Part shown: positions 2,709 through 3,135 of the stretch, piece by piece
How the letters are laid out: each line of letters starts with the position of its first letter
Numbering within the stretch: position 1 is the stretch's first letter
Source: Bacilli bacterium
Lineage (GTDB): Bacteria > Bacillota_I > Bacilli_A > RFN20 > CAG-826
Length of the DNA: 64,000 nt
NCBI GenBank assembly: GCA_017651165.1
Contig: JAGCDH010000012.1
Coordinates: forward strand, 22,595 to 86,594
Reading direction: 5' to 3'
The notes under the pieces: generated by a model
Databases searched by the model: none
What the model was told of the DNA's origin: nothing
What the model saw: only the letters and a program-made list of their open reading frames with translations
Made by a program: the position numbers and the translations under genes

Positions 2709-2737
2709 ATTATACAGGTGTCAAAAGCATTTGTAAA
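2709..2737 (-). promoter_or_regulatory. Sigma-A promoter of the rpsF operon
   Basis: TTTACA-17 nt-TATAAT on the minus strand. Confidence 0.8.
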
Positions 2738-2780
2738 GCGCATGTACGCACTATTGTGCTTGGTAGCGGGCAAAAGCCCG

Positions 2781-2808
2781 TTGACAAGTGCTATGCGAGT
2801 GTTATAAT
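2781..2808 (+). promoter_or_regulatory. Consensus sigma-A promoter with no annotated downstream gene
   Basis: TTGACA (2781-2786), 16-nt spacer ending TGn, TATAAT (2803-2808). Confidence 0.8.
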
Positions 2809-2856
2809 GAAGGTGCTTGTTGGATCCTCGTTTCGAGGACCCTTTTTATTAAACGT

Positions 2857-2922
2857 TTAGTGGCGTTTAACATATTCAAGCATCAACAAAATAACAACGA
2901 GAATTATCACTAATTCCTGCAT
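2857..2922 (-). CDS. Small hydrophobic peptide MQELVIILVVILLMLEYVKRH (type I toxin-like)
   Basis: Hand-translated 21-aa ORF below the ORF-track cutoff; single TM-like core and basic C-terminus; no SD immediately upstream. Confidence 0.5.
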   Translation of the reverse strand: MQELVIILVVILLMLEYVKRH

Positions 2923-3040
2923 AAACTTGGCGCCAACGGAGCAGATGCCCTATTAAATGTCTCATGGATTGTCTCCTTTCGGCATTTAAACCAAGCATAT
3001 GTAGAAGCATTATTGGCAGTTAGACCATTAGGCACAACCA

Positions 3041-3076
3041 AAAAGTGCTCCTATTAAACCAATAGAAGCGTTTTTT
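3041..3076. terminator. Bidirectional terminator-like hairpin
   Basis: A4-GTGCTCCTATT-aaacc-AATAGAAGCGT-T5; a T tract follows on both strands. Confidence 0.65.
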
Positions 3077-3103
3077 GATTTTTGTCCAAAATATTTTATG
3101 CAG

Positions 3104-3135
3104 AAAGAAAAAGGAGCAAAGCTCCTTATTTTTTT
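3104..3135 (-). terminator. Terminator after lysS
   Basis: AAGGAGC-ttt-GCTCCTT followed by TTTCTTT on the minus strand. Confidence 0.75.

Follow-up and report, generated by a model that had tools for sequence, protein, structure and literature searches.

A putative competence-associated, type I toxin-antitoxin-like module between lysS and rpsF in uncultured Bacilli

In the window analysed here, a stretch of 64,000 nt from a Bacilli genome (G000), a 510-nt gap without annotation separates lysS from rpsF-ssb-rpsR, all on the minus strand. A first-pass annotation had read the gap as a type I toxin-antitoxin (TA) locus joining two architectures: an Ibs-like toxin gene covered by its antisense RNA, and a hok-like mRNA with overlapping leader ORF and 5′-3′ pairing. 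Does the gap hold such a locus, and which of the two architectures does it follow? The features assigned to it are collected in Table 1.

Table 1 Features of the lysS-rpsF gap and its borders (window coordinates)
Feature	Position	Strand	Elements or basis
Housekeeping sigma-A promoter of rpsF-ssb-rpsR, downstream of module (context)	2709..2737	-	sequence scan
3′ strands of long-range helices P4/P3 (with 2932-2950) and P1 (with 2990-2997)	2757..2785	-	folding
Extended -10 sigma-A promoter of the antisense RNA	2781..2808	+	TTGACA-16-TG-TATAAT
Predicted antisense RNA, ~33 nt	2815..2847	+	5′ tail, terminator hairpin 2822-2842, U-run 2843-2847
Gene of 21-aa single-helix membrane peptide, putative toxin	2857..2922	-	codon-level selection, 14 copies
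Leader ORF, 29 aa	2876..2965	-	starts 43 nt before peptide ATG, -1 frame; frame open 15/15
P2 hairpin, leader SD (2973-2979) and leader AUG in internal loop	2955..2987	-	15-copy alignment consensus
5′ switch element	2990..3001	-	predicted alternative pairings
Competence-box bipartite promoter-like motif	3048..3090	-	GGACA 3087-3083, CTATT 3065-3061, SD-like AGGAG 3052-3048
lysS terminator (context)	3111..3127	.	sequence scan

The proposed 21-aa ORF is present and, as had been noted, no Shine–Dalgarno (SD) sequence precedes its ATG. Relatives supplied the codon-level conservation that the annotation had asked for: across the 14 intact copies of the genus, g1, 15 of the 19 codons had an invariant second position and none an invariant third, and the peptide frame gave a pN/pS of 0.34, the leader frame 7.7 and the third frame 0.54 (a frameshifted copy, G009, was left out of the codon analysis). 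In all 14 peptides residue 3 is acidic, the core hydrophobic and the tail basic. Across 21 members of the peptide family M1 is the sole invariant residue and the core is generic. Judged by these substitution patterns the ORF is a real gene under coding selection, and a small hydrophobic transmembrane peptide under selection is a hallmark of the type I TA class. Since the leader, the fold and the convergent promoter are moreover kept in 15 of 15 copies, we regard the locus as real and conserved, and its peptide gene and antisense unit as very probably functional. Broken or altered peptide alleles, with a frameshift, a lost stop or a lost start, were seen as well (L133/L140, L012 in G009, L013 in G005, L149 in G268); in the single case of G268, the antisense -10 element and the peptide start are both lost.

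Twelve of the 22 other genomes of g1 matched the module. Among 21 extracted lysS-rpsF junctions, 13 genomes carry it in 15 copies, three of them in tandem in G019; it is cleanly absent from seven same-genus junctions and one from another genus, and the junction was not recovered for three genomes of the genus. The 15 copies are kin, stand for about one event and are not independent.

Both the SD AAAGGAG and the overlapping out-of-frame leader ORF that had been described were confirmed. SD and start are kept in 15/15 g1 copies within the nearly invariant P2 hairpin, and the frame stays open as far as the peptide ATG in all of them. The leader lies 43 or 46 nt ahead in the -1 frame in 13 copies and in-frame in the other two. 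The 24 modules from other genera or loci comprise 15 with a -1-frame leader (offsets 43–64 nt), five with a leader in-frame or stopping early and four with none; overlap in the third frame occurred in 0/24. Leader amino acids are not conserved in the overlap (pN/pS as above). Because open frame and offset are nevertheless kept, selection as read from these alignments acts on the leader frame and not on its product, as for mok. A hydrophobic codon run cannot give a stop in the -1 frame, which lets the leader extend across most of the peptide gene; the module thus has the overlapping leader ORF characteristic of hok/Sok and ldr/Rdl. In-frame leader-peptide fusions behind a strong SD occur in G015, G019 (copy 1), L136, G392 and G388, and further in G098 (twice), G036 and G211, which is awkward for a potent toxin.

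The minus strand between 2745 and 3045 folds at z = -7.1, with 0/100 shuffles as good, and all 15 g1 copies form the same nested helices (z -3.2 to -9.0). P2 is almost invariant among them, showing no compensatory change, and is weak on its own (-4.2 kcal/mol, z -2.1). RNAalifold on a MAFFT alignment of the 15 copies returned no compensatory pair and no long-range helix; since the long-range helices had been missed in this way, the arms were compared directly, and cognate arms outpaired non-cognate ones in 12, 13, 13 and 15 of the 15 copies for the four helices, a comparison that ignores kinship. The 8-bp inverted repeat between 2757-2764 and 2990-2997 was recovered as reported. The pairing of CATATGCTTGG with CCAAGTTTATG, proposed to sequester the peptide start, is there, but the predictions confine it to the nascent RNA, with 10.8 expected pairs against 0.0 at full length. 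In the nascent transcript the 5′ switch element is predicted to pair with the peptide start region, by at least four pairs in 12/15 copies; in the full-length RNA it would instead pair with the 3′ end at 2757-2764, this 5′-3′ helix replacing the sequestering one. In silico, the mRNA therefore appears structured and translationally guarded, as in the type I TA class. Activation by 3′ trimming as in hok was unsupported, since the SD stayed closed throughout a 3′ truncation series of the G000 RNA (equilibrium folding only).

The near-perfect plus-strand promoter reported earlier matched at 12 of 12 positions and is kept in 15/15 genome copies and in 14/14 metagenome rows (one a duplicate). The antisense RNA had been drawn across the whole ORF to 3041-3076; this extent has to be given up, as a hairpin with U-run at 2822-2847 comes first and is kept in 15/15. 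On this prediction the RNA most likely stops after about 33 nt. Predicted lengths are 30–36 nt in the 15 g1 copies and 29–41 nt in 28 of 29 modules scored, a set that joins to the g1 copies 14 of the 24 others, chosen for their -1 leader after removal of near-duplicates. The predicted 3′ end falls 7–12 nt short of the peptide stop in 13/15 copies, the other two having a shifted stop. Because the G000 RNA would end 9 nt short of the ORF, the antisense RNA is not Sib-like. In genus g45 the predicted RNA overlaps the ORF by 2–10 nt in 11 of 12 copies scored. According to the T1TAdb account, known type I antitoxins measure 60–200 nt, Sib spans the whole ORF, and Gram-positive families overlap at the 3′ side (PMC8594479).

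The antisense RNA has a conserved promoter and terminator and may be expressed. Among 24 RNA runs, all stored as contigs, the word share was at most 0.11; four were mapped, and module bins reached a depth of 0–1.8, from contigs of relatives. An RNase III gene is present, and several copies carry A-C mismatches in the 2822-2842 hairpin on the antisense strand. Once the mRNA is folded, most of the toehold for the antisense RNA is predicted to be inaccessible (mean unpaired 0.32); when the leader ORF was forced open, access to the toehold rose by more than 0.2 in 16/28 modules, compared with 2/28 when only the start was opened. This modelling suggests that leader opening may expose the toehold, the effect being in part a trivial consequence of the constraint. 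No conserved trans target of the antisense RNA was found, the best trans duplexes lying near the shuffled mean and at varying places. Trans action on the SD was likewise unsupported, as antisense binding left SD access unchanged in silico.

What would transcribe the peptide mRNA? The hairpin at 3041-3076, listed earlier as a terminator, exists but belongs to a promoter-like minus-strand motif found genome-wide in 17 copies. The stretch 3040-3096 is repeated across G000 (1.14 Mb, 79% complete) and reads on the minus strand TTGGACA-N17-CTATT, then an SD; 16 of the 17 sites have the 17-nt spacer, and the reversed genome has 0. Behind the 16 other sites lie comEA-comEC, comFA-comFC, dprA, recA, radC and a C39 peptidase gene, as well as genes for an ABC transporter, ORF6N, YhcG, NUDIX and an esterase and uncharacterised genes; further down the C1 operon behind one site is a comGA-like ATPase. 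The module thus shares a promoter-like motif with comE, comF, comG, dprA and recA, as a member of a late-competence regulon would. The right half of the motif is a hairpin too and may terminate read-through on either strand; since the recA site has no hairpin arm, the motif is not merely a terminator. From its fixed spacing and position we infer a promoter, with a transcription start at about 3054-3052 on the minus strand. The weak minus-strand promoter TTGTGC-17-AATAAT noted before is present, yet kept in only 1/15 copies; the motif common to competence genes is the likely promoter of the peptide mRNA on sequence grounds. It persists at module-less lysS-rpsF junctions, and it precedes rpsF-ssb in genus g45; in single genomes, it stands before recA and comFA in G370, rpsF-ssb in G386 and dprA in G036. 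In competent B. subtilis the rpsF 5′ UTR is 27.9-fold up (PMC7317962).

Candidate regulators of the motif are a 177-aa sigma factor on C5 and an MG284/MPN403-family gene behind the motif. At L070:2-1791 (-) the former, ECF-like and the only alternative sigma factor found in G000, is followed by a serpin-family gene and, adjoining that gene, may not be the regulator. The latter (L052:1353-1682, -) opens, directly after the motif, the operon that extends to the comGA-like ATPase. Several side observations concern the motif sites and junctions. Most motif copies have a -10-like box complementary to the downstream SD, so that the SD would be hidden in a read-through RNA and not in one that begins at the motif. 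Between motif and radC lies a gene for a hydrophobic peptide of 60 aa with no family above cut-off (L057:124-303, +), and another copy is followed by about 300 nt with no SD-led ORF (L064:74-372, +), possibly a competence-induced non-coding RNA. The motif also precedes mobile-looking, variable genes (L053, L055, L056, L062, L063, L065) with ORF6N, YhcG/DUF1016, LPD3 and uncharacterised cargo, suggesting that it travels or captures cargo. Nearly every g1 junction, whether or not it carries the module, has a GTCTAACT-like word (3017-3025, -) that follows a small variable hairpin; pairing of the conserved GGTCTAA (3019-3025) with the rpsF leader loop was unsupported at 0.0–0.2 expected pairs in 20 junctions. 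The rpsF leader itself (2629-2681, -) has a conserved hairpin and an SD-pairing stem with no Rfam match, and resembles the S6:S18-binding leader.

The hairpin motif of the module is shared by 12 named records, from uncultured Bacilli, Bacillales or Erysipelotrichaceae MAGs mostly of rumen or gut. The metagenome scan gave 14 rows (including the duplicate), 12 with an intact 21–25-aa peptide; one module, L139, occupies a different locus before hrcA, and in L133 a diverged second module follows the first. Iterated peptide profiles matched 35 of 401 family genomes at E ≤ 0.01, several weak matches being noise. Real modules occur in genera g9, g45, g7, g56, g44 and g15 at unrelated loci and often in multiple copies, at least seven in G370, each with its own motif. 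Of 11 weak non-g1 HMM matches only G030 proved a real module; there the module separates the motif from the C39 peptidase gene, whereas in G000 only the motif stands before that gene. A later profile search gave 22 matches, of which six inside long ORFs were dropped; L238 of G629 merely overlaps a spurious frame. With a PWM trained on 25 non-module motif sites, 35 of 40 modules scored above the 95th percentile of upstream regions as background. Among the 21 non-g1 modules found without the motif (g1 orthologues and motif-found copies left out, two G377 matches partly overlapping the motif), 18 did so and 13 exceeded the random-window 99th percentile. Three of the five modules without a motif are later members of tandem arrays. 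Collections and contigs of phages, plasmids and viruses gave 0 module matches.

Outside the family, similar peptides with convergent promoters occur in G629 (five copies), G634, G433, G455 and G526, recognised from peptide likeness and promoters alone. Those at L230, L237-L240 (G629, in tandem) and L231 (G634), in other Bacilli families, have convergent promoters and bidirectional terminators; by sequence, the G629 and G634 peptides may form a further type I family that has escaped annotation. For family f3, a link to competence was rejected: the upstream motif in G526 stands only before its two modules, apart from two unrelated near-matches.

How does the module compare with known systems? 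With ibs/Sib it shares an about 20-aa hydrophobic peptide and tandem repeats; however, Sib spans the entire ORF, which the predicted antisense RNA does not, and IbsC has no basic C-terminus (PMC8309996) whereas the module peptide has a basic tail. The Pfam Ibs family (PF13956) scored 10.4 bits against a cut-off of 27, with 1/21 members at E < 1. The combination proposed in the first-pass annotation thus stands by conservation for the mok-like leader and hok-like pairing, and falls for its Ibs/Sib half. As in hok/mok/Sok and ldr/ldrX/Rdl, an out-of-frame leader overlaps and its translation rather than its product would matter; 5′-3′ long-range pairing and a predicted nascent metastable pairing further recall hok (PMC9841398, PMC4147584). 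On the other hand, the peptide has neither SD nor Hok Pfam match, no activation is predicted from trimming the 3′ end, and Sok, which blocks the leader, is placed 5′ of the ORF whereas the module antisense lies 3′; Pfam gave no Hok or Ldr match at E ≤ 1. A 3′-side convergent antisense RNA, predicted here, is the arrangement of the Gram-positive txpA/RatA, bsrE-G-H and sprG/SprF systems. RatA, however, overlaps by about 75 nt, compared with a ~33-nt antisense short of the ORF in G000 and a 10-nt overlap in most of g45; the module in addition has a leader ORF and a competence-motif mRNA promoter, and Pfam, NCBIfam and Rfam held no match to these families. Pairing outside the overlap via repeats near the start, as in Fst/RNAII and SprA1, was not found, trans duplexes again lying near the shuffled mean. 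Since membership failed on the features tested, we place the module outside Ibs, Hok/Ldr, Fst and TxpA/Bsr, and as type I TA-like by sequence, its mRNA resembling hok and its antitoxin positioned as in txpA. An Rfam match to a housekeeping RNA, which would have spoken against the locus, was not credible in any of 12 cases, all far below gathering; four further loci gave 0 Rfam matches and a PDB profile search 0. A search of mostly non-subscription literature found no description of the peptide family.

Two further systems resemble the module in regulation. ComI of the B. subtilis plasmid pBS32 is a peptide that crosses the membrane once and belongs to a type I toxin-like (BsrE-like) family, described as expressed more in competent cells and killing them; the word "antisense" is absent from the main text of that report (bioRxiv 2024.02.02.578676). 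ComI is, however, plasmid-borne and 30 aa long, while the module is chromosomal and multi-copy and has an antisense unit. The toxTA system of H. influenzae is reported to be under a competence promoter and often deleted, but is type II, with a protein antitoxin and CRP-Sxy control (PMC6957337). A review section on competence-regulated TA systems names, besides hokD under Sxy overexpression, none but type II systems (PMC11951105).

Coding selection, leader frame, structure, antisense unit and motif association together lead us to favour, with some confidence, a competence-driven type I TA-like module that forms part of the leader of a late-competence transcript and probably acts as a switch by which competent cells poison themselves. 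Once the competence regulon is on, an RNA would start at the motif and run through the module towards rpsF-ssb-rpsR. The nascent RNA would hide the peptide start, and the finished RNA would refold into the nested 5′-3′ structure. Ribosomes would load at the only SD, translate the out-of-frame leader and open the structure, letting some initiation occur at the SD-less 21-aa peptide, as mok does for hok. The constitutive sigma-A promoter would supply an antisense RNA of ~33 nt directed at the 3′ UTR; this RNA would probably bring about RNase III cleavage as for txpA/RatA and set a threshold, and above it the peptide would depolarise the membrane and arrest or kill competent cells. Toxicity and neutralisation by the antisense RNA are putative, and the in-frame fusions and a regulator known only as a candidate are among our main doubts. 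Further points against this reading are the pN/pS of 0.54 in the third frame, the RNAalifold outcome, the five modules lacking a motif, the SD access unchanged in silico by 3′ truncation or antisense binding, the kinship of the g1 copies and an antisense length below that of published type I antitoxins.

The motif association would also fit a non-lethal, competence-induced membrane peptide that modulates the uptake machine or acts as a brake ending competence, the antisense RNA only damping leaky expression. Tolerated in-frame fusions agree with this, as does the first proposal that ComI acts on the uptake machinery (PMC12378983). We nevertheless consider it rather unlikely: tandem and dispersed multi-copy arrays, clean loss from sister genomes and broken alleles fit type I TA systems (PMC2887945), several layers of silencing fit a harmful product, and a generic core with M1 alone invariant across 21 members also argues against it. 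That the convergent promoter serves as cis transcriptional interference or a roadblock tuning rpsF-ssb read-through, with the 33-nt RNA a by-product, we judge improbable. The shortness of this RNA, the missing conserved trans target and the buried toehold speak for such a role; a conserved terminator and a length range held over 28 modules of several genera suggest a defined RNA, and the gain in toehold access upon leader opening, although partly trivial, points the same way.

The original Ibs/Sib-like model, in which an antisense RNA of ~260 nt covers the whole ORF, ends at 3041-3076 and opposes an mRNA from the weak sigma-A promoter, keeps only a very small share of our belief. A hairpin with T-run (3036-3080) can form on the plus strand, and the A-C mismatches in the early terminator make read-through possible in several copies; against this stand the retention of that terminator in every g1 copy, of the weak promoter in one, and the Ibs score far below cut-off. 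Just as little weight goes to a selfish, non-autonomous repeat that spreads beside competence promoters with no host role. Patchy distribution and the copies of G370, each with its own motif, would suit it, but viral contigs, phages and plasmids gave no match and the module has long been retained vertically at lysS-rpsF. This reading is compatible with a competence-linked type I TA module rather than exclusive of it.

A bolder extension of the competence-driven reading, which we put forward as a doubtful possibility, is that an entire family of type I toxins is wired into the competence regulon, with a ~33-nt antitoxin and a 3′ UTR target exposed by leader translation. Each copy would have its own competence promoter and would arrest or lyse competent cells of gut Bacilli; the target would be bare only when ribosomes cross the leader, so that mRNAs in translation alone would be destroyed. 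In several bacteria competence goes together with arrested growth and cell death, but the review section cited above names few competence-regulated TA cases (PMC11951105), and ComI is encoded on a plasmid. If the reading is true, a chromosomal multi-copy type I family behind competence promoters would offer a simple, clonable model of how competence is tied to arrest or DNA release, would lower the known size limit of antitoxin RNAs from 60–200 nt to ~33 nt, and would unite a mok-like leader and an antitoxin on the 3′ side in one system. The analysis incidentally defines the motif of a competence regulon for an uncultured lineage.
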